The notes beneath the pieces were generated by a model. It searched no databases, was not told where the DNA came from, and saw only the letters and a program-made list of their open reading frames with translations. Below are positions 4,250 through 32,228 of a stretch of 64,000 nt of DNA, piece after piece (position 1 is the first letter of the stretch; each line of letters opens with the position of its first letter). Made by a program: the position numbers and the translations under genes. The stretch comes from a virus (Duplodnaviria; Heunggongvirae; Uroviricota; Caudoviricetes), in IMG/VR virus record IMGVR_UViG_3300028103_000015; one strand, given 5' to 3'.

Positions 4250-4280
4250 TTATTGTTTCATAGTGTTGTTTGTTTAATAA

Positions 4281-4312
4281 AAGCCTCTTTTATCAAGAGG
4301 CTTTTTTATTTT
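4281..4312 (+). terminator. rho-independent terminator closing the basic-protein operon
   Basis: Perfect 9-bp stem AAGCCTCTT/AAGAGGCTT with loop TTATC, followed by TTTTATTTT. Confidence 0.7.
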
Positions 4313-4318
4313 CATCAT

Positions 4319-6463: not shown

Positions 6464-7102
6464 TGTCTTATAAGAGGATGCTGATGTAGCATTTTTCATG
6501 TAATACATAAACTCTTCACTAGCCTTAGCTTCCTCTATAGAGAATTCCCATGGGTAGTGTCTGGCCACATATGGAAATGTTGTAGACCCTCCACCTATAA
6601 AATACCCACCTAGCCTATATAGAGCAAACGTGGTATCTATTTGCACCTCAAGCGCCACATCTTCTTTAACAGGAGATTTCTGCCACCTGTCTCTTTCATA
6701 CAAATGCAGACGGTTATAATAGGGAGACTTGCTCTCCACCCTCTGCCAATCTAATCCTAACCCCACCTTATTCAATTCTAGGCTGTTCAATCTATCCTGC
6801 AGATAGAGAAGTGTGTCATTGGGTGTCTCTTCTAACCCCATGTCTGGGTCTGTAACAACATATGGACAGTCTTTAAACTGCCCCACTACACCCGCTAACC
6901 AGGGAGCAGCTACCCCTACATTATTATTTAACCTCATTATTGTACAGGGGTTGGTTGCATACCATTCTAGAAGAGGGGGATAGGTGGAGGCATTATCCAC
7001 AATAATCACATCCCCCACCCCGTCATATTCTTTTATTCTCTCCACCATAGCCTTAGGCCATGTGAGCAGATTTCTGTTATTTATTATAACTGGAATGTTC
7101 AT
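6449..7102 (-). CDS. putative glycosyltransferase (GT2-like)
   Basis: N-terminal MNIPVIINNRN...VIIVDNASTYP resembles the GT2 signature. Confidence 0.45.
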   Translation of the reverse strand: MNIPVIINNRNLLTWPKAMVERIKEYDGVGDVIIVDNASTYPPLLEWYATNPCTIMRLNNNVGVAAPWLAGVVGQFKDCPYVVTDPDMGLEETPNDTLLYLQDRLNSLELNKVGLGLDWQRVESKSPYYNRLHLYERDRWQKSPVKEDVALEVQIDTTFALYRLGGYFIGGGSTTFPYVARHYPWEFSIEEAKASEEFMYYMKNATSASSYKTLIGL

Positions 7103-7635
7103 CTCTTTTGTATGATAAGAAGTTTAGCATCGTTTACAAGGGTCATAAAGTGATCACGTCCATCTAACCACTCAGTGATCCTCTTGATAGTATCTTGTCT
7201 ATTGGCATGTCCAGCGTGTAAATCTTCAATAAAATAATATCCTCCTACTCTCAGATCTTCCCATAGTATTTTGAACGAAGCTACAATGTGATCACCCACA
7301 TGACTTCCATCATCAATAATAAAATGGGGTGCTCCACTTTTATCTATAACTCCTTTCATAAACTGTTTGTCTGACTGGTCTCCTATGTATATATTGAATC
7401 CAGACACATGGTTGTGCACATTAGGATCAATATCCACAGCATGTATGTCCAGTTCAGGATTGTATTCTCTCCACATTCTGAGAGAGTCCCCATGCCATAT
7501 TCCTATTTCTAGGAGTATATATCTTCCTGTCTCAGGAATGTACATATCATACACCTGTGTATATCCATGCTTCTCGTAGTGTTCTGTACCCTTGTCAGTT
7601 TTATTACGATTGGCAATTTCTGTAAGTCTTCTCAT
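7099..7635 (-). CDS. class I SAM-dependent O-methyltransferase (TylF/CmcI, Methyltransf_24-like)
   Basis: DKGTEH..Y and EIGIWHGDSLRMW (the SAM-binding GxWxGxS) match the macrocin/cephalosporin sugar O-MTase family. Confidence 0.6.
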   Translation of the reverse strand: MRRLTEIANRNKTDKGTEHYEKHGYTQVYDMYIPETGRYILLEIGIWHGDSLRMWREYNPELDIHAVDIDPNVHNHVSGFNIYIGDQSDKQFMKGVIDKSGAPHFIIDDGSHVGDHIVASFKILWEDLRVGGYYFIEDLHAGHANRQDTIKRITEWLDGRDHFMTLVNDAKLLIIQKR

Positions 7636-7639
7636 AAAA

Positions 7640-8206
7640 TTAGTTGTGTACGAATAACACTTTATTAATTTTCACAATGGGCTCGTCAGGGAACATCTCT
7701 CTGAACTTATTCACAAACCACCCATCAGCATCATATCTAACACCCAGCTCAATCTGCTGAGCTAAGTCTCTACGCGTGGCAAATGCTCCCATGTCAATTC
7801 TCCCATTGGCAGGCTCACATTGAAAATATGCATAGTCATAATGGGAATGCACCATATCCCAATAAATCATTCCTGGATTATTATTAGACGCAAGGGCTAT
7901 TTCTTTTATGAAGTTGGGAGTGTAATAGTTGTCATCTCCCGTCATTACAACATACTGGGCACTGCTCTGTTGCTTTCCATACTCCCTTGGTGTATGGCCA
8001 AAGTTGTTATAACGTATGTTCATCTTTGACCACATGATTCTCTTGTCCATTAAGCTTTGTACAAGCTGTACATTCTCTACATCCTCTGGATTGTCAATAA
8101 CAACGTGTGCCACCCAGTCTGGATGGGTTTGTGCTAATAGAGACAACAACATGCTTTTTAAGGGAACAATGCGATTATATGTTGGAATTATGAAGTCTAC
8201 TAACAT
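7640..8206 (-). CDS. glycosyltransferase family 2
   Basis: FIIPTYNR near the N-terminus and TGDDNYY (DxD). Confidence 0.7.
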   Translation of the reverse strand: MLVDFIIPTYNRIVPLKSMLLSLLAQTHPDWVAHVVIDNPEDVENVQLVQSLMDKRIMWSKMNIRYNNFGHTPREYGKQQSSAQYVVMTGDDNYYTPNFIKEIALASNNNPGMIYWDMVHSHYDYAYFQCEPANGRIDMGAFATRRDLAQQIELGVRYDADGWFVNKFREMFPDEPIVKINKVLFVHN

Positions 8207-8912
8207 AGTCTTTCAGCATTTGTGTGTAGTCGTGATTCCAATGAGGCTTAAGCTCTATTTCTCCTGTAGGTATTTTACCCTGCGCTCTTAAGTTTTCTAC
8301 GTGTAAACTATGTCTTTGTATGACATTGGGTTTGCCAGGAACATCGTGTCCTTGTCCAGACATGTGATATCCTCTGCCTCCCCACATATAAAACCAACTA
8401 GCTTCTTCTTTAGGAGGAGATGCAAAGAGTCTTCCACCATGAGCATGTAAACGTTCTATGAATGTCATATCATATCCAGCATTCTCAATAGGATGGCCAC
8501 CTATGGCTTCCCATGCAGACTTCCTAAATACAATACCAGAATTCCCTATCCATGTAATATCTGTTATTCTATCACCATTAAAGAACACTCCTGGGTTCCA
8601 ATGCATGATGTTCACATCATCTGTGAAATATTTAGCTACATTCTGTAAATGCCAAGGAACAGCAACATCATCATCATCCCACTGGCATATAATATCTCCT
8701 TTACAGATGTCTGTAGCGTAGTTTTCTTTGTCACCAATGGTGCTAAAGGTGTAATCCAGGTTGTATATTCTCACCTGTGGATGATTATATCTCAGCTTCT
8801 GCAGAGGATAGTCATTCACTATAACTAGCTCACACCTGTCTGCAGGGTAGTCCTGCTTGAGGAAAGAATGTAAACTCTCCTCAAGCGTATCCACCCTACC
8901 ATAAGTGATCAT
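8175..8912 (-). CDS. glycosyltransferase family 2-like
   Basis: MITYGRVDTLEESLHSFLKQ and QWDDDDV (DxD). Start trimmed to Met9 of the ORF 8175..8936. Confidence 0.6.
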   Translation of the reverse strand: MITYGRVDTLEESLHSFLKQDYPADRCELVIVNDYPLQKLRYNHPQVRIYNLDYTFSTIGDKENYATDICKGDIICQWDDDDVAVPWHLQNVAKYFTDDVNIMHWNPGVFFNGDRITDITWIGNSGIVFRKSAWEAIGGHPIENAGYDMTFIERLHAHGGRLFASPPKEEASWFYMWGGRGYHMSGQGHDVPGKPNVIQRHSLHVENLRAQGKIPTGEIELKPHWNHDYTQMLKDYVSRLHNSNI

Positions 8913-8913
8913 T

Positions 8914-9216
8914 TTACATGATATTAGTGGCAGCATAAAAACGTTCTACATCTTCTGATTCTAAATAGATTTCACTCTGAAAGGTGTTTCTCTGACGTTT
9001 AACACCCTTCACCTTATTGTTTCTAGGATCTACGTCAGGTACTTCCTGACTTCTTTCATGTAAATCATCTAACAAGACTAACAGTCTTCCATCCTCAATA
9101 CCCACAGTGCGAATCACCTTGTTCATGTTAAAGCTGTCTCTAAATACATTGTACACAGGATTGTCTGGTGTACCGCTCTTAAGCTCCTTACGAGTGTAAA
9201 AGAATTGATTTTTCAT
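8914..9216 (-). CDS. hypothetical protein
   Basis: 100-aa ORF tiling the leftward operon. Confidence 0.45.
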   Translation of the reverse strand: MKNQFFYTRKELKSGTPDNPVYNVFRDSFNMNKVIRTVGIEDGRLLVLLDDLHERSQEVPDVDPRNNKVKGVKRQRNTFQSEIYLESEDVERFYAATNIM

Positions 9217-10263: not shown

Positions 10264-10713
10264 TTATTTTAAACCTGTTGATCCGAACCCACCAGTACCA
10301 CGAGTTGTGTCAGAGAGTTCATCTGTTTCTATGAATTCAGCATCTTGAACCTCCTCAAAATAGATTTGAGCACATCTATCACCTATACCAAAAGGAAAGG
10401 GACCATCTGTCATCTCTCCTAAACACCTGAATACAGCTTTCCATTCTCCTCTATAATCAGCATCAATGATGCCTATAGAATTAGCCAGCACCCAGTTTGT
10501 TTTGGAAATTCCACTACGGGGAACAACTACTCCTCTGTATCCTCTAGGGATTTCTGTGGCAAATCCCAGTCCTACGGTCATTTTGTTAGGACGTTCCACT
10601 TCTATGCTTGCTGCGTATACATCAAAGCAAGCAGCATCCAAGCTACCCTTTGTAGGTAGCTTGGCGTGCCCATTAAGTTTCTTATACTTGATCTTCAACT
10701 TCTTGCTTGGCAT
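10264..10713 (-). CDS. dut: dUTP diphosphatase (trimeric dUTPase)
   Basis: All five dUTPase motifs are present: AACFDVY, VPRSGIS, GIIDADYRGE, GDRCAQ and TTRGTGGFGSTG. Confidence 0.9.
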   Translation of the reverse strand: MPSKKLKIKYKKLNGHAKLPTKGSLDAACFDVYAASIEVERPNKMTVGLGFATEIPRGYRGVVVPRSGISKTNWVLANSIGIIDADYRGEWKAVFRCLGEMTDGPFPFGIGDRCAQIYFEEVQDAEFIETDELSDTTRGTGGFGSTGLK

Positions 10714-11831: not shown

Positions 11832-12038
11832 CTAAGGTTTTTGATCCTTATCAATCTTTTTATTTCCTTTCTTATACTTGGGGTCAAAGGGGCAGTGTCT
11901 GCAAGATTTGCCACAGCAGAAACCTCGTTCAATATGAAATTTCTCTGTGAACACAACCTTGTCATTCTCAAGGTAGTAGTGTATACCAGCCCTAGGCGAT
12001 TTCACAAGCACCTCCTGCACATGCTGCAATTTGACCAA
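11832..12038 (-). CDS. small Cys-rich protein
   Basis: GFCCGKSCRHCPF motif. Overlaps the 3' end of the RNR gene by 47 nt in another frame. Confidence 0.35.
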   Translation of the reverse strand: MVKLQHVQEVLVKSPRAGIHYYLENDKVVFTEKFHIERGFCCGKSCRHCPFDPKYKKGNKKIDKDQKP

Positions 12039-13842
12039 ATTCTACAGTGTCATCTAGTTCTGTCACCTTAGTGAGATCTACATTTTTAAGTGAGGACAGT
12101 CTAGTGTCATACTCTGTCCTCTCTATGTCCTCAAAGGGGGCTTGTTTGTAACTTCCTCCCCAGAAGGGTAGTACAGAGAGTCCATTGTAATATTCTTTGT
12201 TAGTCCACATCCATTCACCTACAACAGGCCATTCTTCTGGCTTGATAGAAATTGTAGCGCTCACATTGTGTGTATTCTCTCCTGTGTTATGTCCTGCCTT
12301 GATCCATTGTGTAGCAAACTTCTTAACACGCTCTAGTGTGTCTAGAGGGCTTTCAGTTCTAAATATAGATCCTTCTGGGGCTTTAACAGGAATTCTTACA
12401 CACACTGTGTCATGAGGACGCAGTACATCATCTTCTACAAGTTCTGGATGATTTACCATCAAATAGGATGCAACATCCTCATTCTTGCCAAATCTCATTG
12501 TTCTCAAATAATATGGAGCATGCCATGCATGAATGCCACTAGCTGTACCTAACACAAGACTTGTTGTTCCTGAAGGCTTAATACATGTTACACGTGCTGC
12601 CTCATTGATTCCAATCTTCTCACTAATAACAGCGTTGGTTAGTTTGGCTACATGTGCTGCTGCTTCCAAGCTATATTTCAAGATTTCTCCTGATCCAATA
12701 CCTGTCATTCCTATACCTAACAATGCATCCTTCTGAGTAGTTTTAGACCAAATAGGTCTGAGATAGTGGAAGTCTGTAAATCCAGCCTGCAGTGTTCCCA
12801 AGAAGGCTGCTGCTGTAACACGGTCATTCAGGTCTTCCTGATTAACCACATCACTTACGTTCACCTCACATAGGTTACAGAACTGGTATGGTCTAAGAGC
12901 AATCTCACAACATGGATTGGTTCCCCAGTCTAAATTGTTGGTCCAATAGATTCCAGGCTCACCAGATCCAGAAGCTTCAATCCTCTTCCAGAGGGCATCA
13001 AATTCTTCTTTGCCTACAGAACCTCTCAACAGTACAGCTGAGTTATTAGCTCTACCACGCTGTTCATTGGTTTCCCACCAGTTACCATATTTACATGTAA
13101 TCATCTCCTCATCATCATGACTGAATAGAGATATCATGGCTGATCTACGAATACCACCAGCTAGAACACTGTTAGCAATGTGACAGAGGATATCATGACA
13201 TTCTAGAGGACTCAATTGTTCTCCTTCCTGTTTCCTGTCTAAGACTGCCTGCACATGCGCCAGACATATCTTAAGAGGCTCAGGACCAGGAGCTTTACCA
13301 CCAGCTGTCACTAGTCTAGCACCTTTCTTACGAATGGCTCTAAAGTCAAACTTAGGCATAAATCCTTCCTCTAGATAGGCTTTCATGAGCACCTTCACAG
13401 CGTCTGCCCAGCCCATAATGCTATCCTCGATGAGATAGTTACGGAGTTTTCCAGGCTTTGTAATAGCTGGAAGCTTTGCAACGTGTTGTTTCTGAACACT
13501 ATAGCCCACACCTGTACCACCTAGAAGCAAAAACATAGTTTCGCTGAAGCTATGGATGCTATCTATAGGTAGGTAGCAACAGTTGTAAATACGAGAGTTG
13601 TTCACTTCAGCTGCTGGTCCAGCAAACTGTAGAGCTCTCATAGAGGGAAGCACCTTCTTTTTCCTTATAAATGTGGCTGTTTCTACAATTTGACTTTCTA
13701 GTTTGGGATATTTCTTGATCATCATTTGCTCATATCTATCCACAATCTCATCCCAGGTTTCTCTTCTTTTGAGCTCTGGAATATACTTTGCATACTTACT
13801 AAATACCGTGAGCTTGCTCAACGCGTCCAATCCTAAATCCAT
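11992..13842 (-). CDS. nrdJ: ribonucleotide reductase, probably class II (B12-dependent, NrdJ-like)
   Basis: N-terminal YAKYIPELKRRETWDEIVDRY (NrdJ signature), active-site NPCCEI, and a C-terminal Cys pair (CAGGAC). No NrdB partner is present in the window. Confidence 0.7.
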   Translation of the reverse strand: MDLGLDALSKLTVFSKYAKYIPELKRRETWDEIVDRYEQMMIKKYPKLESQIVETATFIRKKKVLPSMRALQFAGPAAEVNNSRIYNCCYLPIDSIHSFSETMFLLLGGTGVGYSVQKQHVAKLPAITKPGKLRNYLIEDSIMGWADAVKVLMKAYLEEGFMPKFDFRAIRKKGARLVTAGGKAPGPEPLKICLAHVQAVLDRKQEGEQLSPLECHDILCHIANSVLAGGIRRSAMISLFSHDDEEMITCKYGNWWETNEQRGRANNSAVLLRGSVGKEEFDALWKRIEASGSGEPGIYWTNNLDWGTNPCCEIALRPYQFCNLCEVNVSDVVNQEDLNDRVTAAAFLGTLQAGFTDFHYLRPIWSKTTQKDALLGIGMTGIGSGEILKYSLEAAAHVAKLTNAVISEKIGINEAARVTCIKPSGTTSLVLGTASGIHAWHAPYYLRTMRFGKNEDVASYLMVNHPELVEDDVLRPHDTVCVRIPVKAPEGSIFRTESPLDTLERVKKFATQWIKAGHNTGENTHNVSATISIKPEEWPVVGEWMWTNKEYYNGLSVLPFWGGSYKQAPFEDIERTEYDTRLSSLKNVDLTKVTELDDTVEFGQIAACAGGACEIA

Positions 13843-16552: not shown

Positions 16553-16791
16553 TTCTTTGTCTGTTTAAATGCTTCAATAATAGAATTGTACATAGCTCTC
16601 ACTTCACGAGGCACTCTTGCGAAGAACCATCTTACCTCTGGAGCATATTCATTGCCTCTAGGATCTACACCCTGAGGATCAATAAGCCAGAAATAATGAC
16701 GCTCTCCCTTGGATTCTATGTATCCCTCATGCCACACCTCCACAAAGGAGGCTTCTTTGTTAATCACTATCTGATTTACTTCTTCTGACAT
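16549..16791 (-). CDS. hypothetical protein
   Basis: ORF tiling. Confidence 0.4.
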   Translation of the reverse strand: MSEEVNQIVINKEASFVEVWHEGYIESKGERHYFWLIDPQGVDPRGNEYAPEVRWFFARVPREVRAMYNSIIEAFKQTKK

Positions 16792-17180
16792 TCTTTTTCC
16801 AATTTAGTTTTGTGATCATGACATTTCTCACATAACACCTGCAAATTGTCCTTCTCACAGAACAGACGCTCCACAAATCCTGGGAGGTCTTGTGCAGAAT
16901 TAAGACTTCCTGCTGGGCGAATATGATCCACGTTAATCTTCTTTTCCTGGAACCACTTACCACAGCTAGCACACTCATACTCATACTTCTGTCTCTTATT
17001 AGGGCCTTTGTATGGTCTACGAGCTTCTAGCTTAGCCTGTAATATGGGTTTCCAAAATCTGCTCTTCTGCCTCAAAGCACTGCGAATAAAGGACCAAAAG
17101 GCGCTTTCAGTCATAGTGCCAGCATTCCTAGGTTTAGCCACCTTGGGCTTCCTGGATGCTCGTTTCTTCTTGATTATCAT
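16776..17180 (-). CDS. HNH endonuclease
   Basis: CASCGK...VDHIRP...NLQVLCEKCHDHKT is an HNH motif with a zinc-finger pair. Confidence 0.75.
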   Translation of the reverse strand: MIIKKKRASRKPKVAKPRNAGTMTESAFWSFIRSALRQKSRFWKPILQAKLEARRPYKGPNKRQKYEYECASCGKWFQEKKINVDHIRPAGSLNSAQDLPGFVERLFCEKDNLQVLCEKCHDHKTKLEKECQKK

Positions 17181-17239: not shown

Positions 17240-18778
17240 TTAATCAACAATCATCTGCACCCTAGAGCTGATTTCATCTCTCATGTGGTCAAGAGACTGA
17301 ACAATATTCTCAATCTCCACAGTGGAAATGTGAGGAATGTTGAACTCATGCTTCTTAGACTCAGCTACAAAACCATCCTTGGCCTTCTCTGACAAGCTCT
17401 CAAGCTCACGAATAGCGTAGCTATCATCTAGTTGAAGAGTATCAAAATCTAGGTCATGTAGGATTTCTGTAGCTTCCTCTCTAGGAACAGTCATGATTGG
17501 GAGATATTCCCAGCACCTGCCCTTAGATTCACCAATACCAACCACCTTCATAGGATTGATTAATACAAGCACAGATTGATCACCACAGCCTACATAATGA
17601 ATCTCGTCAGATGTGAAATGCAAACCTTCTGCACCACAATCATCTGTGTTCCATCTACACTTACCTGGATCCATGTTTACAGGCTTACCAACACGAATAT
17701 CAAATGTGCGTGTATGAGCATCTGTAAATCTATTCTCTGCCCTATTAGGTAAATCTAGATAGAGATCTGTCAAACCTCCAATCTTCTCACCATACTCACT
17801 GTCATTATAATCATAACGATCACCATCACCATCACACGTACCACATGCTGTATACTCATTCTCCTCCTCATCCCACATTTCACCAGTACCATCACAGTCT
17901 TCACATGTTACAACTTTATTAAGGTCTTTGTTATCCACTATTCTATACTCACCATCCTTGAGAAACACTGTATATTCATTTGGACTCTTCTTCCATACAG
18001 CTTTCACCTTGTTGTAAGCATTACTCACGAATTGTACAAGCTCAGTACTACCGTGGAGCGTTACTACGTTCCTCAGTGCAACAAAGAATCCTTGCTTGGT
18101 GATCTTAAAGCTATTCTTCTTGAGGAAGTTGTATAACTTGTCAGCCACCTCAGCACGAGGATTCAGACAGCACCACATAAAGAAGCGCTTCAGAGACTGA
18201 TATTCCTCGTCAATAGACAAAGACCAACGATTTCCATTGTGTCTGTTCACTATACGAAGGAACTCCTCAACAAGAAGTTGTGGAAGTGTGCGGTTGATAC
18301 CATACAGATAAACACTATTCCCCTTCACCTCAAAATCATTCAGCTCAGCCAGTAGTTTAATACCAGCCTGTAGCGCTCTAACTCTCTCAGCTTCATGCTC
18401 TTGTTTCTTTCTCTCTGTAACCACCTCTTGAACAGCCATAATGTCTATAATCTCATATTCATCTATAGCACTACGAACATCCTCAAAATCCTGTGTTGTA
18501 GCATTTGGCTTAGATAGGATGGACCCATCGTTAAGCACCACAGTGAGCACATTATTCACAAGCTTTACATTCTTGTAGGACTTTGTAGCTACACCTCCTG
18601 TGTTGGTGTTCACAGTCCAATTGTATGTCTTTTCTGCAGCAGGTAATGTCGCAGATGTTGCAGATGTTGCTTGAAACAATTCTTTTCTTAGGAGCTCATT
18701 CTTTATTCTTTGCTCCTCCACCTGTAATTCATCAAGTTCTCTTTGTTTTTTTGATTTGAACCAGTTTAATGTAAACAT
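17240..18778 (-). CDS. hypothetical protein with DnaJ-type CxxCxGxG zinc-finger repeats
   Basis: CEDCDGTGE and CGTCDGDGD motifs, plus a C-terminal Cys/His-rich region. Lies immediately downstream of the HSP90 gene. Confidence 0.5.
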   Translation of the reverse strand: MFTLNWFKSKKQRELDELQVEEQRIKNELLRKELFQATSATSATLPAAEKTYNWTVNTNTGGVATKSYKNVKLVNNVLTVVLNDGSILSKPNATTQDFEDVRSAIDEYEIIDIMAVQEVVTERKKQEHEAERVRALQAGIKLLAELNDFEVKGNSVYLYGINRTLPQLLVEEFLRIVNRHNGNRWSLSIDEEYQSLKRFFMWCCLNPRAEVADKLYNFLKKNSFKITKQGFFVALRNVVTLHGSTELVQFVSNAYNKVKAVWKKSPNEYTVFLKDGEYRIVDNKDLNKVVTCEDCDGTGEMWDEEENEYTACGTCDGDGDRYDYNDSEYGEKIGGLTDLYLDLPNRAENRFTDAHTRTFDIRVGKPVNMDPGKCRWNTDDCGAEGLHFTSDEIHYVGCGDQSVLVLINPMKVVGIGESKGRCWEYLPIMTVPREEATEILHDLDFDTLQLDDSYAIRELESLSEKAKDGFVAESKKHEFNIPHISTVEIENIVQSLDHMRDEISSRVQMIVD

Positions 18779-18796
18779 GTTGTTTGTTTTTGAATT

Positions 18797-21097
18797 TTAT
18801 AATATTTCGTTTAATACTTCCTCACTAATAGGTGTTTCTATTTCCACCTCATCGTTGAGCTTGATTTGATAATATTTCAGATCCACCCTATGCTTGTGAT
18901 ATTTGAATAGATCTACGAGAGCCTGTGTTATTTTCTGAGTTTTATCATTAGTGTAAACACTCATGGCGTCTAGAATTGGATGGAGGAACAAAAGCTTTTC
19001 GCACACAGCCTTCACCTGCTTATACGTGTCATGTATCTCAGGATCAAACTGATTCACCTCTGTAGCATGCGCTGCAATAGCATCTCTAGCTTCATCACTC
19101 ATGATGTCTCTATAGTTTTTTCTAAAATAACTCTCCAGTATTTCCACCTTATTAAACAGATCTGTAGATACGTATTGCAGGTGTTGTCTATTACTGAACA
19201 CAGCTCTATATTCATCTCTGAGCTTGTCAATCATACAGCTAGAAGCTATACGTTGGAACATTTTATTCTTCCCTTCCATAAATTTACTAAAAGACATTAG
19301 GTTATGTAATTTCAAGCTAGTCACTATTTTGAGCTCACGGTCACTGAATATAGCCAGCTCAACATTGTGGTTTCTACTAGGTTTAAACCATTCATCCATT
19401 TTGTTAGCATCTTCCTGCTTACCATACAAAAGAACAAACTTGTTCTGGTGGAACTTAGCTAGGTCATATATCTTGCTCACCCACTTACAGTTTTTACCAT
19501 CAGACCAACGCTCTAGCGCTTCAGCCTGTTTACACACAATCTCACCCTTGAGCTTTATTCTACGAACACCAGGCGTACCACTTGCATTAACACTCACCTT
19601 CACCTTCTTTCTAGAATCAATGAAGGATTGAGGAATGTCTATTGTGTCAAGACTGATAAATGTACTTGTTAAGCTCTTAACAACCAATTGGAAGTCTTTA
19701 ATCAATTGTCTCCATTGTTCCTTTGGATAGTCACGAAGCTGTAGGATGTTATAATAGTTGTCATAAGCACCATCTTTACCACGCAGCTTGAAGTTTTTCA
19801 CCTTCTTAAATATGTAAGCCTCTTCATGTGTATGAGATTGTGAGCTCTTGACATAGTCTTTCTTTAACTGACTAAGTTTCTCTGATTCATATACATACAC
19901 TTTATCCTTCAGACGTCTTACAGATGTTATTTGGTAATAACTCTTGGCATCACGAACCATCTTTCTGTTTACAACAAACTTGCCCTCATATTCTCCAAGA
20001 ATATACTCCTGCAGCTTTGCAATGCGAGAAGGTTTTAGTAATGTAGTTCCCTTAAAGTTGGGCTCGTTCATTTTAATTGTAGCAAACTGAGACAAAGGAT
20101 TGATGTCCCACTTGTTAGTGTTAAACATCAAATACCTATTGTTGCTATCAAAATACTCTACAATCTTTCTAACATTATCTGTTTCTTTAACACTCTCGTT
20201 ATATTTCTCCACAAAATAATCAGCAGCTTGAGAAAGACGTTTGAGAATGATAGCCTTGGCCTCCTGTGTATATCTAATAGATTCTCTGTTTGGTGTTGGA
20301 AATATACCATCTGTCAAACTAAATCTAAGACCAACAGGAAGCATTATATAATCAATACCAAGCTTCTTAAAATCCATGGGATAGTAGACATTATCCAAAC
20401 AGATGTGTAGATTGTTGTCTTTAGCTAGTTCAGAGAATTGAAAATACTGATGACGGACAATTGTAAAATCATTACTAATCCCTTCTACATCAAAATATAC
20501 ATTCTCGAAATAAGCTAGCTGCTCGTTGATTTTATGATTGAAATCATACTTATCACGCCAGCTAATTGGAACAATCACCTTAACACCATTAGGCTGATCT
20601 GTAGGAGCTTCATATAAGAGGTCAATTGTATTGACATCTTCTCCTTCATACATCATGTATTTGCGTTCCATTCCATCCTTACGAGCGATAAAATAGAAGC
20701 TAGATGTATATGCTAGCGGGGCTTTAAATCCTAGCCCCATCATGCCTAGTTCTGTAGTGCTATTACGCTTTGTACTCTTACCATATTTACTGATGATATT
20801 CTTTACGTCCTCAGCATCTAGTCCTGTACCAAAATCCTCTACAGAGAATTCATATGAGTTGTCTTTTGTAGCACGCAGGCTGACAATAATAGGTTTGTCA
20901 GTTTGTGCTCTTCTGTGACTGTCCAGCGCATTAGAGGCACACTCACGAATAGTGGAACCAATTGCGTCTGAATACAAGTTCTTGCTCAGCATTTGCATAA
21001 GCACCTGTGCTGAGTCCAGGTCTAAGGACATGCCTATAGACTCTGTGGATTCACCGTCCTGATGAATCAATGCTTCTTTCTGTTTTTCTAATATCAT
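18797..21097 (-). CDS. HSP90-family GHKL ATPase (HtpG-like), 766 aa
   Basis: N-box LMQMLSKNLYSDAIGSTIRECASNALDS (compare HtpG [24 protein letters not shown]), G1 box VEDFGTGLD, G2 box ELGMMGLGFKAPLAYTSSFYFIAR. Confidence 0.75.
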   Translation of the reverse strand: MILEKQKEALIHQDGESTESIGMSLDLDSAQVLMQMLSKNLYSDAIGSTIRECASNALDSHRRAQTDKPIIVSLRATKDNSYEFSVEDFGTGLDAEDVKNIISKYGKSTKRNSTTELGMMGLGFKAPLAYTSSFYFIARKDGMERKYMMYEGEDVNTIDLLYEAPTDQPNGVKVIVPISWRDKYDFNHKINEQLAYFENVYFDVEGISNDFTIVRHQYFQFSELAKDNNLHICLDNVYYPMDFKKLGIDYIMLPVGLRFSLTDGIFPTPNRESIRYTQEAKAIILKRLSQAADYFVEKYNESVKETDNVRKIVEYFDSNNRYLMFNTNKWDINPLSQFATIKMNEPNFKGTTLLKPSRIAKLQEYILGEYEGKFVVNRKMVRDAKSYYQITSVRRLKDKVYVYESEKLSQLKKDYVKSSQSHTHEEAYIFKKVKNFKLRGKDGAYDNYYNILQLRDYPKEQWRQLIKDFQLVVKSLTSTFISLDTIDIPQSFIDSRKKVKVSVNASGTPGVRRIKLKGEIVCKQAEALERWSDGKNCKWVSKIYDLAKFHQNKFVLLYGKQEDANKMDEWFKPSRNHNVELAIFSDRELKIVTSLKLHNLMSFSKFMEGKNKMFQRIASSCMIDKLRDEYRAVFSNRQHLQYVSTDLFNKVEILESYFRKNYRDIMSDEARDAIAAHATEVNQFDPEIHDTYKQVKAVCEKLLFLHPILDAMSVYTNDKTQKITQALVDLFKYHKHRVDLKYYQIKLNDEVEIETPISEEVLNEIL

Positions 21098-21099
21098 AA

Positions 21100-21411
21100 T
21101 TATGCCTTTTTAACCAACCAAATGTTTCTGTAATTTAGATCTACGTATTTTTCCACTGTGTAATTATCTGATGCGTTGTATTCTTTTCTGGTCCATGTGC
21201 GTGCGTGACCACCCCAATTAGTGTTGTATGTTATTTCTTTCATAGCCACTACACATTTCACCGATTTGTAATAGGTTTTACCTTGTTGACCATGAACAGG
21301 CTGCACCTTCTTTGGTTCTACGGGTCTAATCACCTTAGCTCTGGCAATAGTTCCCTGTACAGAGTAGAGGAACTCATCCCCCATCTGTAATTGTGTTACA
21401 TCAATTTCCAT
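21100..21411 (-). CDS. hypothetical protein
   Basis: ORF tiling. Confidence 0.4.
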   Translation of the reverse strand: MEIDVTQLQMGDEFLYSVQGTIARAKVIRPVEPKKVQPVHGQQGKTYYKSVKCVVAMKEITYNTNWGGHARTWTRKEYNASDNYTVEKYVDLNYRNIWLVKKA

Positions 21412-21421
21412 AAATGTTTGT

Positions 21422-22141
21422 TTAGAAAGGAGGCTCTTCGTAGAGCCATTCGATTTGATAATTGTTGTTGTCTTTTACAATCTTGTTCACCTTGGTGAAT
21501 ACACCCTCTGTATCCCAATCTGTGTTCTTGTAAGAAGCACTGGCTGGATGACTAAGAGCAAAAGACCATGTGAAGGGTGATACATAGCGCTGATATTTGG
21601 AAGCATCTTTGCCCAGAAATATAATAGGCACACCAGCTGTATCTATTGCGTGTTCAAAGAACCAACGTGTAAATGGTTCCCAAAGAGCAATGTGTGAGCC
21701 TGCCTTGTTGATTTCTGTTGTGAGCGCTGCGTTAAACATCAGCACACCCTGGTGAGCTAGATAGCTAACGTCTGGTGTCTTGGTGAATTTAAGATTGAGC
21801 CCGTCATAGAGTTCTCTCTCAATACCACCATAAAACTGTTCCAGCGATGGCTGTAGGCTATTTGTAATAGAACAACCCATTAACAAACCATCTGCTACAT
21901 ATACACCATTCTTAGCTGTGTGATAGGGGCACATGCCCATCATCACCACCTTTAGATTGTCTAGCGAAGTTTCTTTGAATGCTCTGAATACATTAGAAGA
22001 AAGAGGGGCTATTTTCTTGCCCCTCTTTGATTCTCTTTTGAGAAACTCATAGATCTCATCACATTCACTACTTTCGATGAATGGCCTCATCTTAGCATGC
22101 CAGCTCTCATGAAACTGGTCTTTGAATTTCTCCCAAATCAT
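21422..22141 (-). CDS. uracil-DNA glycosylase family-1 homologue with the water-activating Asp replaced by Cys (GMCPYH instead of GQDPYH)
   Basis: Colinear with E. coli Ung: KVVMMGMCPYH against KVVILGQDPYH, PSLEQFY against PSLLNMY, GVLMFNAALT against GVLLLNTVLT, and HPASASY against HPSPLSA with His187 conserved. Confidence 0.75.
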   Translation of the reverse strand: MIWEKFKDQFHESWHAKMRPFIESSECDEIYEFLKRESKRGKKIAPLSSNVFRAFKETSLDNLKVVMMGMCPYHTAKNGVYVADGLLMGCSITNSLQPSLEQFYGGIERELYDGLNLKFTKTPDVSYLAHQGVLMFNAALTTEINKAGSHIALWEPFTRWFFEHAIDTAGVPIIFLGKDASKYQRYVSPFTWSFALSHPASASYKNTDWDTEGVFTKVNKIVKDNNNYQIEWLYEEPPF

Positions 22142-22142
22142 A

Positions 22143-22916
22143 TTAAAATGGCATTTCTAATTGTGTGAAAGGAATTTCTTCTACCACTGGCGTGAGAACA
22201 TTAATACCAGCAGCATTCACAAAGAAGGAATGCGCGTTGATATGATTTCTCATCCATAAGCTTGGGTGAACCTCCTTCATAGCGAATGTGGTGTGTTGAT
22301 AGAGCTCCCATAAGCTGCCTGGAGCACCATAATCAAAAGATGGGTTCTCTATTTGACCCCTGATGATGTTAAGCTGTGTGCTCTCAATGATGTTTTCCTC
22401 TATGATCATTCTACCAATAAGCTCAGCTGTTGTACGCTTTGTCACTTCCATATTCTTCATAGCATCACGTTCGCTTTGAATCTTTGTGAAAGCATCACCT
22501 GCTTGCTTAATATATTCTGTAATAGCGTTAGGTGTGAATGTTTGGATTTCTCCTCTGTGTGCTTTTCTAAATGCACCATAATCACCTGATACACAACCAT
22601 TTGAACAAATAAAGATGCGTGTACCAATAGCAAACTTCAAACTCATAGTTTTGTCATAGCTATTCTGCCAGCCAATCTGTAGCTGCATTTCGCTATCTGC
22701 TATATTCTTGATGGTATATCTACCATTTGCTACATTACCATCTCTTGCTGCTGAATATGTTTCTTCTTCTAATTCAAAACCTGCTCCATGTATGCTCTCT
22801 AATGTCAGGTCCATAAGCTGTTGATGTGTAACAGGCTTGTAAGTTTTTGTTTCTGCAGGAAGTGCTGCGTTTAGCAGAATGTCTTTTGCTGCTAAATAGG
22901 ATTTTTTTGTTTCCAT
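22143..22916 (-). CDS. DUF932-like phage/plasmid protein
   Basis: Size and the IGTRIFICSNGCVSG motif resemble the DUF932 core. From memory only. Confidence 0.35.
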   Translation of the reverse strand: METKKSYLAAKDILLNAALPAETKTYKPVTHQQLMDLTLESIHGAGFELEEETYSAARDGNVANGRYTIKNIADSEMQLQIGWQNSYDKTMSLKFAIGTRIFICSNGCVSGDYGAFRKAHRGEIQTFTPNAITEYIKQAGDAFTKIQSERDAMKNMEVTKRTTAELIGRMIIEENIIESTQLNIIRGQIENPSFDYGAPGSLWELYQHTTFAMKEVHPSLWMRNHINAHSFFVNAAGINVLTPVVEEIPFTQLEMPF

Positions 22917-22926
22917 GTGTTGTTGT

Positions 22927-23931
22927 TTATAAAAGTTTCTTTTCGTTTAAATACGATATAATGGCTCTTAGTCCGTGCTCTTTTGCTAGATCAGCCCAAT
23001 CCTTAATGCCTTCTGTCAGATATTTTCGTGGAACATTTGCATACTCAAAGTTAAACAATTTGGTTATCATTTGACTATTCCTAACACCCACATCATCTGC
23101 ATCAAAGGACAGGATTTGCCTGTCAGAGTTGGCCTTTAGATATTCTACATTCTCATCAGAAAAGCATGCTACACCCTCATTCTGGACAGCACAGCAGCAG
23201 GGAAACACCTTTTTCATCACCATGTAGTCCTTTTTAGACTTGTTGATGAATGCCACCCTACAATTCTTTATATCCTCCTTACCATCCATGGCTGTAATAG
23301 GCACATTATTGGGCACCCATTTGCTTTTCTTGTCTCCAAAAGGACGATAGATCTTCCAATGACCATCATATAGATAACCAAACCTGAGTTCTGTGTCCTT
23401 TAGAGGAAAACGCTTCCTGTTGAGAAATAGCTCTTTGATTGAATACACACTGTTGGCTCTGAGATCATCTAAGCTCTGATAGTATTGGTTCCAATATTCA
23501 AGTTCTTCTTTTGTGAACTTGCGTGTCACCACCTGAATCAAAGAATAGCGCTTTCCCAGGTCTTCTGGTTGCTTATATTCCTTCTGAATGGTCTTATACT
23601 TGTCTGTAGAGGTGCCTGGTAGAAAACCTAGCCCAAAGTCTTTATCAATCAATCTGAGCACCTCATCCATATTGGATAGATTGTACAGCATTTTGACAAA
23701 TGTGAAGCAATCTCCACGCTTGCTGGTATCTGCAAAATCTATAAAGGATATTGTCCCTCTTTTATTCCCTATAACAAATGAGGGATTATTTTCGCTCCTA
23801 AATGGGGAAAAGGTGGCTTGATTGAGCTTCCAGTTTTTATCTGGCATGTAGAACCTAAATATGTCATACTCTGATATCTTGTTGAGCACAGCCTGAGGAG
23901 TGAGCCTCAACTTGATGTCTCCTTGAATCAT
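22927..23931 (-). CDS. DnaG-like DNA primase (degenerate zinc-binding domain plus TOPRIM-like core)
   Basis: N-terminal ISEYDIFRFY..FSPFRSENNPSFVI is colinear with the DnaG zinc-binding domain but lacks the Cys/His ligands. C-terminal acidic motif ILSFDADDVGV is TOPRIM-like. Confidence 0.5.
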   Translation of the reverse strand: MIQGDIKLRLTPQAVLNKISEYDIFRFYMPDKNWKLNQATFSPFRSENNPSFVIGNKRGTISFIDFADTSKRGDCFTFVKMLYNLSNMDEVLRLIDKDFGLGFLPGTSTDKYKTIQKEYKQPEDLGKRYSLIQVVTRKFTKEELEYWNQYYQSLDDLRANSVYSIKELFLNRKRFPLKDTELRFGYLYDGHWKIYRPFGDKKSKWVPNNVPITAMDGKEDIKNCRVAFINKSKKDYMVMKKVFPCCCAVQNEGVACFSDENVEYLKANSDRQILSFDADDVGVRNSQMITKLFNFEYANVPRKYLTEGIKDWADLAKEHGLRAIISYLNEKKLL

Positions 23932-27474: not shown

Positions 27475-27634
27475 GTGTAAATATTGACACGCTCCAGAAA
27501 AGCCACTCCAGGTTGATCACTGTGTATCTATCTAAAGGATCAGGACTTCTCAGGATTGTTATTGTGGGTAATAATACAATTTGCCAGTAGGGTTCTTTCT
27601 CACTTGGAAAAGTGGAGAATAATTTCACGTTCAT
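27416..27634 (-). CDS. hypothetical protein (overlaps its neighbour; uncertain)
   Basis: ORF track only. Confidence 0.25.
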   Translation of the reverse strand: MNVKLFSTFPSEKEPYWQIVLLPTITILRSPDPLDRYTVINLEWLFWSVSIFTHDKERLSNSEDDKSYYTNI

Positions 27635-28698
27635 AGTTGGTTATTTAAAAAATAGGATTTGTTAATCACTGCCTCATAATCAGCGTCTGTCATTACATTG
27701 CGTTTAGGCAGTTCTTTGAACATACCGATCTGGCCCATAAAACCAAGACCAATGCGCACATCATCTTCACCATAGGAATTCTTTATCAACCTAAGGTTTC
27801 TAAAATACTTAGCACCATATTGGTCCTTCAGCTTATTCAGGTCATAACCACTTGGGTCAGCCACCTTATAGCGCATAGGATCAAACAGGGCTAATACAAC
27901 ATCAGCATCATTCTGTGTCTGTGAACTCTCAGCAAAATCTTCTAGCTGAGGCTCAACATCACCATTCTTAATCCTGATGGGATTGCTAATATCACGATTG
28001 AACTGACTCACCACCACTGGCGTATATCCATAGAAGTCACGAGCATATCTGAGCTCATCACTCATCTTATCAATAGCCTGCTTCTTAGTGGTTTGGTCCT
28101 TCGTAGTCTTTAGTAGACCAATGTGGTCAATAATCACAAGTGTTATCTCATTCTCATGATTGGGGAAATAGCGCTTGTTATATTCATCCACCTGTTCTAT
28201 CTTACCATGTTGTAGAGCGTGAGCTTTGAGCTCCTTGGCTATACCCACAGCATTCTCTGGACCATCAATGATTGTAATGATGTCATCCATTCTGCCAATA
28301 TAATCCTCATACATCATGAACAAATCATGCTCATCCTTGGTCATCTTCTCATTCCAGCCCAATAGCTTGCTTACAGGGATGATGATGCCCTGGTCGATGA
28401 ATATCTTCCTGCTCACCCATTTAGCCAGCTTATAGGTCCTAGAACGCTCCATAGAGCGATATATGATGCGTAGCTTCACTCCTGGATCAGTTTGGCTGAT
28501 ATACCAGTCAAATGGATTGAGAACAAAGGCATCATCAATAAAGCTAGTCTTACCAGAGCCTGTTAAACCACCCACCAGGAAGTATATGCTCTTACGAATG
28601 CCAATATATCTATTTAGCCTATTAAAACCCATGGGTATACCGTTATTCCTCCCTGCTAGGCCAAGCTCCACTTCTTGTTTAAGTAGTTCAAAACTCAT
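27631..28698 (-). CDS. dnaB: DnaB-like replicative helicase (C-terminal RecA-fold domain)
   Basis: Walker A GGLTGSGKTSF, Walker B LVIIDHIGLL, VVVSQFNRD. Confidence 0.75.
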   Translation of the reverse strand: MSFELLKQEVELGLAGRNNGIPMGFNRLNRYIGIRKSIYFLVGGLTGSGKTSFIDDAFVLNPFDWYISQTDPGVKLRIIYRSMERSRTYKLAKWVSRKIFIDQGIIIPVSKLLGWNEKMTKDEHDLFMMYEDYIGRMDDIITIIDGPENAVGIAKELKAHALQHGKIEQVDEYNKRYFPNHENEITLVIIDHIGLLKTTKDQTTKKQAIDKMSDELRYARDFYGYTPVVVSQFNRDISNPIRIKNGDVEPQLEDFAESSQTQNDADVVLALFDPMRYKVADPSGYDLNKLKDQYGAKYFRNLRLIKNSYGEDDVRIGLGFMGQIGMFKELPKRNVMTDADYEAVINKSYFLNNQL

Positions 28699-29823: not shown

Positions 29824-30252
29824 TTAGTCTTTTATGCGAAGGCCAAATTGCAGGTCAAACCATTGAAAGGTTTGCTCAGCTTTAGTTTTGTTGAACTTGA
29901 ACACCTTCCTTAATAAAGGAATGGCATATGACTTGAATAATTCATATTGTTTGGTAGTCATGGTGTTAGTGGAATACCATTTTTCTTTCTTGGTTTCCTC
30001 CATGGTTTTACCAATCATATTGAGTTGATATTCAACCAAATGTGTAGATACATTGGCTCTATTAATCACCACCTTAGGCTGTGGGAAGAATCTATTTCCA
30101 TTCACCTCATCAATAAACTCCTGCTTGTCCCACACCTCTACATATGAATTATCATCAATGTATGTAAGTTTGATGATGTCTCCTCTCATGTAGCTGATGA
30201 AACACAGTTCACCAATGTAATTCTTGAATCTATCTCCTTTTGCTAGTTTCAT
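29824..30252 (-). CDS. hypothetical protein
   Basis: 142-aa ORF. Its stop abuts the polymerase gene start. Confidence 0.5.
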   Translation of the reverse strand: MKLAKGDRFKNYIGELCFISYMRGDIIKLTYIDDNSYVEVWDKQEFIDEVNGNRFFPQPKVVINRANVSTHLVEYQLNMIGKTMEETKKEKWYSTNTMTTKQYELFKSYAIPLLRKVFKFNKTKAEQTFQWFDLQFGLRIKD

Positions 30253-32228
30253 TAGAATAATGTTAGTTGGTTAGGATTTACTACCACCTTGCGCTTTCTT
30301 CCTTCATAAGCAATCTTATGAATGATTTTCTCAGCGCGCTCTATGTAATATTGATAATTGATATTATCTAGAGGATGGCTTTTGTCTAAATGATTGCACA
30401 CTGTACAAACCCACTCACCTGCTTCCACTTGCATAACATCTGCAGCTGTAGATTGACTGTCTGCATTCTTCACCTTGAGGAGCTTCTGTCCTGTGTTGGA
30501 TACATAATACCTAATGAGCTTGTCATAGACAGTTTTCTCACCTGTGGACCTATCTATTCCTTCATAATGGAAGTCTTTAGATGCTTTCTGTCTCAGGCAG
30601 AAATCAAATATCCTATCACAACTCCTAATAGTACGCTCAACAGGTATATTATTAGTATAATATTGTTCAAGAGCCAACGGGATAATACGCGCTGACTTGT
30701 TCTTATGAAGCTCGAAATCTGTGAGGAAGTCTCCCTTCTTTTTAATTTCTCCATCTGTTTTTATTGCAATATAGTCATTTACCGTGGAAAATACAATCTT
30801 CTGATAATCAGTGCGTTCTAGCTCATATTGAGTGAGACTAGACCACCATTTGTTTATCTCATGCATTCTGTCTAATGTCACAGTTTTTATAAGAATTGTG
30901 ACACCATCTGTGTTTGCAGAAATAACACGTATACCAGCTAATTCATATGCCTCAATAAGCATCATCAGGCTAAGCTCTCCTGTTATAGTGGTGAACATAG
31001 TGAGCTGTCTATCATATATCCAGGACTGCATGTCACTAGATTTGCCATACACAGAGTTTACAGCGAGCTTCAGTGCACCCACAATACCCTTAATCTTCTT
31101 ATCCTTCTTAGCTAAAGGTTTGAGCTCTAGACGCTTCTCAAACATGGCTTGATAGCCTCTGAGAAATGCTGGTCCCAAATGTTGTGGATAACGCTTGTTA
31201 TTGATGATGATAGCTGGATAGTAACTAGACACATCCCAGTCTATTATCTGATGATCTTCATCAGCTTCAAATATCTTAGGACTATTCTCTGTATGCAAAC
31301 CACCCTTCATAAAAGAATACACATTGTTATAGAAATGTAGCTCCTCTTTGAAATCATCTTGCAAGCCCAGGCTCAGCTTCTTTATTCTCTTAAGGAATTC
31401 CTGCAGCTCTTTTGTTTGAAACTCCACATATGGAGCAATACAATTCTTTACAAGTATGTTCTTTCTAAAGAATCCTTTCTTGGGCAGTTCTTTATAATCA
31501 ATGCCCTTCTCCTGACAGTAGTATTTTTTGATCATCTCATCACCAATCTTACTGTCAGAATAATTGAGACACGGGATACCGAACTCTTGCTCGATATCCT
31601 GTCTCAACTCAATTTGATTGTTTCCTCTATATAGAGGATGATCTGTCTGTCCAATTGTTACCAAGTAAAACTGATAGGTAGCCCATACATCGTTTATACA
31701 ATAACCTGTGGTGGTAACAATGTCCTCAGTGGTCATTCCTTCCTTGTTATGCACAATAGGCATCTCCTCAATGTTCTCTAAATCCATCTCAAACTCTAGC
31801 CTCTTTAAGCTAACACGTCTATTCTTGTTGTCAAAGTGGTGTATTCTAAATAAGTCCACTTGTTTTAATGTGAGGTCTGTCTCACGATATTCTGGGAATA
31901 CATCATGATTGGCATCATCTATCACATCTGCTGCCTTCTGGTGGATTTTAGCTGTAATTTCTAGAGCAGAAAGCTCATGCCAATATTCATTGTTGCGTAT
32001 CACCCATTCTACCACTTGAGAGTCAAAGCGCAAGTTGTTGTAGCCCACCCAATAATAGTCTTTGTACTTCTCTGTGAAGTTGATGAATGCATCTAGGCTG
32101 TTCTCATCCTTATTCACCCTGAATATTCTATAGGGCTCTTGAGGAATAAGACAAACAACCAGGAAATATTCTTTAAGCGTTTCTATGTCGTAGATAATTA
32201 CGTTGTCCATCATTAATCGTTTTCCCAA
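30252..32228 (-). CDS. family B DNA polymerase with 3'-5' exonuclease domain (phi29/piPolB-sized, 658 aa)
   Basis: ExoI IIYDIETL, ExoII YNNLRFDSQ, ExoIII YCINDVWATY, motif A DWDVSSYYP, motif B KLAVNSVYGKSS, motif C ISANTDGV. Confidence 0.85.
   Translation of the reverse strand: MGKRLMMDNVIIYDIETLKEYFLVVCLIPQEPYRIFRVNKDENSLDAFINFTEKYKDYYWVGYNNLRFDSQVVEWVIRNNEYWHELSALEITAKIHQKAADVIDDANHDVFPEYRETDLTLKQVDLFRIHHFDNKNRRVSLKRLEFEMDLENIEEMPIVHNKEGMTTEDIVTTTGYCINDVWATYQFYLVTIGQTDHPLYRGNNQIELRQDIEQEFGIPCLNYSDSKIGDEMIKKYYCQEKGIDYKELPKKGFFRKNILVKNCIAPYVEFQTKELQEFLKRIKKLSLGLQDDFKEELHFYNNVYSFMKGGLHTENSPKIFEADEDHQIIDWDVSSYYPAIIINNKRYPQHLGPAFLRGYQAMFEKRLELKPLAKKDKKIKGIVGALKLAVNSVYGKSSDMQSWIYDRQLTMFTTITGELSLMMLIEAYELAGIRVISANTDGVTILIKTVTLDRMHEINKWWSSLTQYELERTDYQKIVFSTVNDYIAIKTDGEIKKKGDFLTDFELHKNKSARIIPLALEQYYTNNIPVERTIRSCDRIFDFCLRQKASKDFHYEGIDRSTGEKTVYDKLIRYYVSNTGQKLLKVKNADSQSTAADVMQVEAGEWVCTVCNHLDKSHPLDNINYQYYIERAEKIIHKIAYEGRKRKVVVNPNQLTLF

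Follow-up and report, generated by a model that had tools for sequence, protein, structure and literature searches.

A family-1 uracil-DNA glycosylase homologue of uncultured phages with a conserved uracil pocket and no catalytic aspartate

Family-1 uracil-DNA glycosylases (UNG, Ung) are among the best-understood DNA-repair enzymes, and the aspartate of their water-activating loop is taken as a defining feature. The Asp holds the water in place and stabilizes the oxocarbenium ion, the histidine of motif B stabilizes the uracil anion, a tyrosine shuts out thymine, an asparagine reads the face of the uracil and a leucine plugs the duplex. In human UNG the replacement of Asp145, even by Glu, sharply lowers activity, and His148 has been proposed as a helper of Asp145 (PMC8730318). 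Vaccinia D4, which has no Leu wedge, plays a role in the polymerase holoenzyme that is independent of catalysis (PMC1936997), and uracil-DNA glycosylases (UDGs) of viruses and phages are located in front of the polymerase, on single-stranded template (bioRxiv 10.1101/2025.03.26.645540). Here we describe a gene for a UDG-like protein on a 64,000-nucleotide stretch of phage DNA (IMG/VR record IMGVR_UViG_3300028103_000015; the whole stretch is referred to as the window). The protein is a family-1 UNG homologue without the catalytic Asp. It belongs to a large clade of uncultured phages that keeps the uracil pocket and has dropped the Asp, with the rest of the loop changing along, and purifying selection on the gene is clear. 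We propose that the protein probably recognizes uracil without excising it fast.

The UDG-like open reading frame (ORF; 21422..22141, minus strand) starts with ATG and encodes 239 amino acids. NCBIfam Ung models align to the full length of the protein (E 1e-33), a profile of the phage family matches Ung structures with E 1e-50, and the AlphaFold2 model, computed with 101 homologues in the input, has a mean predicted local distance difference test (pLDDT) value of 97.5. When this model was compared with the Protein Data Bank (PDB) in Foldseek, the top 50 matches were all family-1 UNG structures, with template-modelling (TM) scores of 0.72–0.82. The protein is a true family-1 UNG homologue with the UNG fold. 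Phmmer, NCBIfam, the family profile and AlphaFold2/Foldseek agree on this point, and together they bear out the original prediction, made from the sequence alone, of a homologue colinear with Ung. It is not a bona fide Ung: the defining Asp and the Leu wedge are missing, and the protein scores below every curated family cut-off examined (NCBIfam Ung equivalogs and Pfam UDG), with 22.5 bits for Pfam UDG (PF03167, cut-off 24.3), 116.7 bits for the best NCBIfam Ung model (cut-off 162) and 88.4 bits for TIGR00628 (cut-off 185.75). A family hidden Markov model run on the six-frame translation detected no second UDG-like gene in the window.

The water-activating loop, read from the DNA, is GMCPYH (amino acids 69–74; 21920..21937, minus strand) and aligns to GQDPYH. 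In a phmmer search of the PDB, ‘kvvmmgmcpyh’ lies opposite ‘kvvilgqdpyh’ of Coxiella, Burkholderia and Bacillus Ung (E 4e-17 to 4e-13), and in three independent alignments Cys71 (codon TGC, 21929..21931, minus strand) falls in the column of the catalytic Asp. Individual residues were mapped with MAFFT onto E. coli and human UNG, whose residue numbers match Table 4 of PMC1936997. In this map (E. coli/human numbering) C71 corresponds to D64/D145, H74 to H67/H148, S99 to S88/S169 and K178 to S166/S247. Met88 (codon 21878..21880, minus strand) occupies the position of the uracil-stacking Phe (F77/F158), and the segment GVLMFN (amino acids 132–137; 21731..21748, minus strand) ends in Asn137, the counterpart of the uracil-specifying N123/N204. 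Motif B, also read from the DNA, is HPASASY (amino acids 198–204; 21530..21550, minus strand). It keeps His198 (H187/H268) and Pro199, has Ala200 in place of S189/S270, and has Ala202 at the position of the Leu intercalation wedge (L191/L272). Both the placement of the Cys in the Asp column and the retention of the motif-B His had been proposed beforehand, and alignment with UNG members upholds the two assignments. The protein thus shares with family-1 Ung/UNG a colinear sequence over its whole length, the fold (TM ∼ 0.8), the Pro-Tyr wall, the Asn of GVLLLN, the Ser of the Pro-rich loop, the motif-B His and the His of GQDPYH. It differs in the exchange of Asp for Cys and of the neighbouring Gln for Met, and departs from Ung at three more sites not mentioned in the original prediction, where the stacking Phe has become Met, the Leu wedge Ala and the Gly-Ser loop Gly-Lys, besides the change of Ser189/270 to Ala.

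A full HMMER scan of 1.84 billion representatives returned 5802 relatives at E ≤ 0.001. The best 150 of these were examined, and 135 near-full-length representatives at 50% identity were used for residue counts. The catalytic column, 71, is occupied by D in 58 of the 135, by S in 20, C in 19, E in 16, G in 6 and A in 4. Conservation around the uracil is much higher: P72 is kept in 129/135 and Y73 in 131/135 (96–97%), N137 in 127/135 (94%) and H198 in 114/135 (84%), and outside these residues G85 is kept in 134/135 and W154 in all 135. Column 88, that of the stacking Phe, is divided between F (71), L (31) and M (28), and at the Leu-wedge position, column 202, Ala is found in 87/135 and the six most frequent residues do not include Leu. 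Of the parts of the active site, the uracil pocket is thus the best conserved in the phage family and the water-activating loop the most variable. A minority of the representatives also lack the motif-B His and are clearly degenerate; such members, for example g042 of Cellulophaga phage phi14:2, indicate that the UNG fold can persist without catalysis.

The change at position 71 had been presented as an oddity of a single residue. What we find instead is a coordinated remodelling of four loop positions across a large uncultured clade, whose syntenic relatives carry Asp. Covariation with column 71 is strongest in three columns of the same loop: column 74, which is Pro in acid types and His in small types, column 75 (G/Q/S versus Thr) and column 70 (Gln versus Leu/Met). 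Among the representatives that retain His198, those with an acid (D/E) at position 71 have His74 in 4 cases and lack it in 65, whereas those with a small residue (C/S/A/G) have it in 28 and lack it in 14. The Asp-less type accordingly carries the signature G-hydrophobic-[C/S/A]-P-Y-H-T, and its Asp-type relatives mostly read GQDPYP.

Closer to the window protein, G[ML]CPY is present in 120/120 of the closest database homologues (72–86% identity). In a set of 69 unique genes from 84 related contigs (61–86% identity), position 71 is C in 61 (codon TGT in 46, TGC in 15), A in 6 and S in 2, so that Cys is favoured; the Ala variants make up two or more separate groups, each with Cys-bearing sequences as its nearest neighbours. 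Since Ala can be neither a nucleophile nor a redox centre, the thiol is dispensable, and Cys71 is best regarded as the preferred small residue and not as a nucleophile. Invariant in all 69 relatives are G69, P72, Y73, H74, N137 (within GVLMFN), H150, H198, P199, A202 and Y204, and Met88 is found in 68/69. The median ratio of non-synonymous to synonymous substitution (dN/dS) of the UDG-like gene is 0.17–0.19 at near-saturating dS. Measured in the same genome pairs, it is 0.17 for the UDG-like gene, 0.13 for the adjacent primase gene and 0.21 for the DUF932 gene. Because the purifying selection is comparable to that on the adjacent genes and the site is conserved, we conclude that the gene is functional.

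The nearest cultured relatives come from crAss-like and related Bacteroidota phages; they are the UDGs of the phages PhiCrAssBcn3, DAC15 and cr128_1 (GQDPYP / HPAY[YF]AR) and of Flavobacterium phage FpV4 (GQDPYP / HPAAEAY), all ∼ 30% identical to the window protein. They belong to the same divergent phage clade, share the Leu-less HPAxxA[R/Y] loop and an A-x-G-hydrophobic strand that replaces AHGL, and are encoded in the same replication module; they differ in keeping the Asp and in having Pro where the window protein has His. In FpV4 the UDG gene directly follows an annotated DNA primase gene. The resemblance to poxvirus D4/E4 is of another kind. D4 is a viral UDG derived from family 1 that is tied to the replicative polymerase and has a replication role without catalysis, and it has neither the Leu wedge (HPAARDR) nor the Gly-Ser and Pro-rich loops (PMC1936997). 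Its GIDPYP loop is similar to that of Asp-type phage relatives, GxDPYP. However, D4 keeps the catalytic Asp, is an active enzyme and is linked to A20, whereas the window protein is Asp-less, and the sequence similarity to D4/E4 is weak (E 0.005 with the single sequence, E 1e-11 with the profile). A special kinship with D4, considered because the Asp-type relatives carry GxDPYP and HPAxxxR motifs, was rejected, as the profile is far nearer to cellular Ung. We take the resemblance to be functional and at the level of motifs only, either partial or convergent.

Acid-less UDG families (family 4 with GEGP, and families 2, 3 and 5) likewise begin motif 1 with ‘G-x-small-P’, but they have their own architecture of motifs 2 and 3, and the window protein clearly belongs to family 1. 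In the PolA-UDG of SP15-like phages, too, a UDG module is positioned in front of the polymerase on single-stranded template, which ties uracil handling to replication (bioRxiv 10.1101/2025.03.26.645540). Its UDG domain is of type IV (family-4 type), active and fused in cis, whereas the window protein is separate, of family 1 and Asp-less. The hallmarks of UdgX, an R-loop and a His motif, were not found in the window protein, which is family-1 and not family-4-like. Nor does Cys71 behave as an essential nucleophile of the UdgX type, since close relatives have Ala or Ser in place of this candidate residue. We found no description of Asp-less family-1 UDG homologues in phages in the literature, our coverage of which was incomplete.

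These data are consistent with a model in which the protein is a replisome-linked uracil reader or a low-turnover glycosylase that captures extrahelical uracil, most easily from single-stranded template. We give this reading a probability of roughly 0.45. The water-activating loop has changed from GQDPY(H/P) to G-hydrophobic-[Cys/Ser/Ala]-P-Y-H-T around an intact uracil pocket, in which Pro72-Tyr73 would form the thymine-excluding wall, Asn137 would read the face of the uracil and His198 would contact O2. Extrahelical uracil should then still be captured by the UDG-like protein. Its most likely substrate would be single-stranded template at the replication fork, since almost the entire phage family lacks the Leu wedge that is required for flipping bases out of a duplex. 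With the carboxylate gone, fast Asp-driven hydrolysis would be lost, and the outcome may be either a low-turnover glycosylase, whose residual chemistry is helped by His74 and His198, or a pure reader of uracil. In either form the protein could act as a replisome-associated accessory that is expressed together with the primase. The precedent of D4, the structures of UDGs on the template side and the existence of fully degenerate family members all fit this model. Of the functions proposed at the outset, a uracil reader with lost or strongly reduced catalysis is thus retained as one of the two most plausible, and its counterpart, a reader of modified bases, is not.

Several observations weigh against this model. 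Family-4 UDGs are active without an acidic residue at the motif position (GEGP). Families 2, 3 and 5 have Asn or Ala there and are nevertheless active, so that activity may survive the loss of the Asp, even without a strong reduction. A changed general base would also be compatible with the close coupling of a small residue 71 to His74 and with the invariance of the leaving-group residue His198. The association between residue type at position 71 and His74 is strong by Fisher's test (p = 6e-12), a value that is uncorrected for shared ancestry. The neighbour-joining tree of the representatives is star-like and poorly resolved, with small types in several places, and does not allow independent losses of the Asp to be counted reliably. 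The proposed association with the replisome is based on gene order, and among the 150 representatives none is fused to a polymerase or primase.

A fully competent glycosylase with another catalytic arrangement is the main alternative. In such an enzyme His74 would activate the water, His198 would stabilize the uracil anion and the small residue 71 would make room for the water; its role would be the ordinary, replication-coupled removal of misincorporated uracil or uracil from deamination, alongside the phage dUTPase. The pairing of small residues with His74, where Asp types mostly have Pro, gives the family a ‘keep Asp or His’ look. Within the lineage Tyr73, Asn137 and His198 do not vary, and the gene is under purifying selection as strong as that acting on the primase. 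Family-4 UDGs, which have Gly at the equivalent place in the motif, are active, and the proposed assistance of Asp145 by His148 (PMC8730318) points in the same direction. However, replacement of the Asp in family-1 enzymes costs activity dramatically, even when Glu takes its place (PMC8730318), and 14 of the His198-retaining representatives have neither the acid nor His74. The catalytic column is also far more variable than the pocket, which would be unusual if turnover were selected, and the Leu wedge, the Ser of the Gly-Ser loop and one pinching Ser are missing as well. We consider full competence unlikely. If the protein were instead a purely architectural replisome subunit like poxvirus D4/E4, the UNG fold would serve as a DNA- and protein-binding module and uracil recognition would be irrelevant. 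It would be unexpected for an unused pocket to keep Tyr73, Asn137, His198 and His74 invariant over saturating synonymous divergence, and the family profile is much closer to Ung (E 1e-50) than to D4 (E 1e-11). Thus, an architectural role seems distinctly improbable to us, although the hypervariable catalytic column, the members that lack both the acid and the motif-B His, the place of the gene in a primase operon and the precedent of vaccinia D4, which shares the Leu-less loop (PMC1936997), would all be in keeping with it.

Two further alternatives concern the chemistry of Cys71 and the nature of the base, and both had been raised in the original prediction. A nucleophilic Cys71 could form a thioglycosidic DNA–protein adduct, analogous to trapping by UdgX, a UDG-fold protein able to crosslink to DNA, or it could act as a redox switch, possibly with Cys90. 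Cys is indeed the commonest residue at position 71 in the lineage, with both codons in use, and Cys90 is common (94/135 representatives). But Cys90 is equally common among Asp-type members, C, S and A interchange across the wider family, and in the close relatives Ala (6/69, at least two origins) and Ser (2/69) replace Cys with the rest of the site identical. Covalent or otherwise altered thiol chemistry is therefore abandoned, with only a minimal probability left to it. A Cys–His catalytic dyad (Cys co-occurs with His74) was also dropped as the main reading after the Ala and Ser variants had been found in close relatives. A reader of, glycosylase for or decoy of a modified pyrimidine (such as a glycosylated or hypermodified base) would shield the phage DNA from host enzymes. 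The four GT2 glycosyltransferases and the methyltransferase of the window, the Met at the stacking position throughout the lineage and the fusion of one representative to a NADAR domain could be cited in its favour. Against this, there is no variation in the uracil-specifying Asn or in the Tyr that keeps out 5-substituted pyrimidines, a dUTPase is encoded, Asp-type relatives occupy the same genomic slot in related phages, and no hydroxymethylase- or thymidylate-synthase-like gene was seen among the ∼ 60 window ORFs scanned (64 kb of a ∼ 110-kb genome). The proposal of a modified-base reader or decoy has thus gained no support, and we give it a very slim chance. Because the Tyr and Asn are invariant and a dUTPase is encoded, ordinary uracil-poor DNA and a uracil-shaped pocket are the simpler expectation.

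The existence of this clade bears on two questions: whether the ‘UDG’ genes of crAss-like and related phages encode enzymes of repair or accessories of the replisome in the manner of poxvirus D4, and to what extent other residues can stand in for the Asp in UNG catalysis. The automatic annotation ‘uracil-DNA glycosylase’ may be wrong for a substantial fraction of these genes. We speculate, as a doubtful extension, that the G-hydrophobic-[C/S/A]-P-Y-H-T proteins form a distinct functional subclass of family-1 UNG, consisting either of Asp-less ‘read-ahead’ sensors that would bind template uracil at the phage replication fork and leave it uncut or of enzymes with His as the general base. If this were true, the widespread crAss-like ‘UDG’ would primarily be a replisome component and not a repair enzyme. 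The sensor version would provide a phage counterpart of both the catalysis-independent role of poxvirus D4 and the uracil-sensing pocket of archaeal polymerases; in the His version, these would be the first family-1 enzymes in which a His-based general base replaces the Asp.

By its gene content, the window is assigned to an uncultured crAss-like (Crassvirales-related) phage with a genome of ∼ 110 kb. The terminase, portal and major head protein match crAss-type PHROGs, and a CrAss_Ring_2 tail ring protein is also encoded. For the terminase, identity is 39% with Leptolyngbya phage Lbo-JY46, ∼ 32% with Cellulophaga phages phi17:2 and phi4:1 and ∼ 26–29% with crAss-like phages; related contigs, which are of environmental metagenomic origin, reach 109–119 kb, and no near-identical DNA was found in deposited phages. 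The UDG-like gene lies in a long minus-strand block of replication and nucleotide-metabolism genes. In the order of transcription this block encodes a DNA polymerase, a DnaB-like helicase (27631..28698), an SNF2 helicase, an AAA_24 ATPase, a 287-amino-acid ORF, DUF6165, a putative DnaG-like primase, DUF932, the UDG-like protein, a 103-amino-acid ORF, rIIA-like and rIIB-like proteins, an HNH endonuclease, an exonuclease, ribonucleotide reductase (RNR), RecA and dUTPase.

The DNA polymerase ORF (658 amino acids; 30252..32228, minus strand) matches PHROG 1252 (E 2e-138) and gave no Pfam match at E ≤ 0.01 and no PDB sequence match. The putative DnaG-type primase (334 amino acids; 22927..23931, minus strand) has a weak match to the CHC2 Zn-ribbon. 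Directly upstream of the UDG-like gene, with a spacer of 1 nt, is the DUF932 ORF (22143..22916, minus strand; Pfam DUF932, E 1e-9), for which a PDB sequence search gave no matches. DUF932 is complete in 33/84 related loci and absent from two loci discussed below (L090 and L096); we regard it as a variable insertion that separates the primase gene from the UDG-like gene. The 103-amino-acid ORF (21100..21411, minus strand) starts 10 nt downstream of the UDG-like gene in the same operon. Its position is conserved in the related loci L001–L004, and family searches with it gave no match. As the spacers around the UDG-like gene are 1–10 nt, we regard these genes as one operon. Directly downstream of it are the rIIA-like (766 amino acids, HATPase_c) and rIIB-like (512 amino acids) genes (17240–21097), and the HNH endonuclease ORF (16776–17180) lies between the rIIB-like and exonuclease genes. 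A B12-type-like RNR (11992..13842, minus strand; Pfam Ribonuc_red_lgC, E 1.5e-8) and a dUTPase (10264..10713, minus strand; Pfam dUTPase, E 1e-19) are encoded 8–11 kb from the UDG-like gene in the same minus-strand block, in line with the co-occurrence noted originally. Beside the nucleotide-metabolism block, four GT2 glycosyltransferase ORFs (4253–4951 and 4951–5631 on the plus strand, 7640–8206 and 8175–8936 on the minus strand) are clustered with a Methyltransf_24 ORF (7099–7635, minus strand) between 4253 and 8936.

Across the related phages examined, the primase homologue is the most constant upstream neighbour of the UDG-like gene. At L090 the UDG-like gene, with the loop FMDPYN, occupies the same slot and its product is 49% identical to the window protein, compared with 62% for the primase and 63% for the N-terminal region of rIIA. 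This comparison (window 18797–23931 versus L090) suggests that the UDG-like gene has evolved faster than its flanks across the Asp/Cys switch. L091 and L092 have the loop CQDPYF and a primase 63% identical to that of the window, and one short ORF separates the primase homologue from the UDG-like gene at both L090 and L091. The module is also retained in other Cys-type lineages. At L096 (loop GLCPYH) the primase gene directly precedes the UDG-like gene and overlaps its start by 4 nt; at L097 (loop GYCPYH) DUF932 is directly upstream, and exonuclease, RNR and RecA genes are downstream. No related loci of P0203 and P0129 were found in IMG/VR. Because syntenic relatives carry Asp, the Asp-less form arose within a gene that kept its place in the replication module. 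In deposited phage records no protein exceeds 34% identity to the window UDG-like protein, so that no cultured phage appears to carry the Cys type. Gene product g042 (L094, 2974–3684) of the cultured crAss-like Cellulophaga phage phi14:2 has GKEPYR in the loop and EDPIQAV, without the His, in the region of motif B; although annotated as ‘uracil-DNA glycosylase’, it is probably not a canonical UDG. The gene directly follows those for an aminotransferase and an amidoligase.

Fusions of the UDG-like domain were set aside as clues to function. A NADAR domain stands N-terminal to a Ser-type (GLSPYH) domain in P0133 (L089, 46–1203), which is a single short contig of 1.3 kb. NADAR enzymes likewise act on N-glycosidic bonds, and this fusion could hint at a base-processing role. 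A fusion of DegV to a UDG domain is likely to be a chimera. In P0137 a GIY-YIG domain is fused in frame to a GMCPYH domain, probably representing a neighbouring homing endonuclease. GIY-YIG and LAGLIDADG endonuclease ORFs recur near UDG-like genes (P0137; L087, 2111–2833; L096, 12820–13611) and are probably homing endonucleases that invade the replication module.

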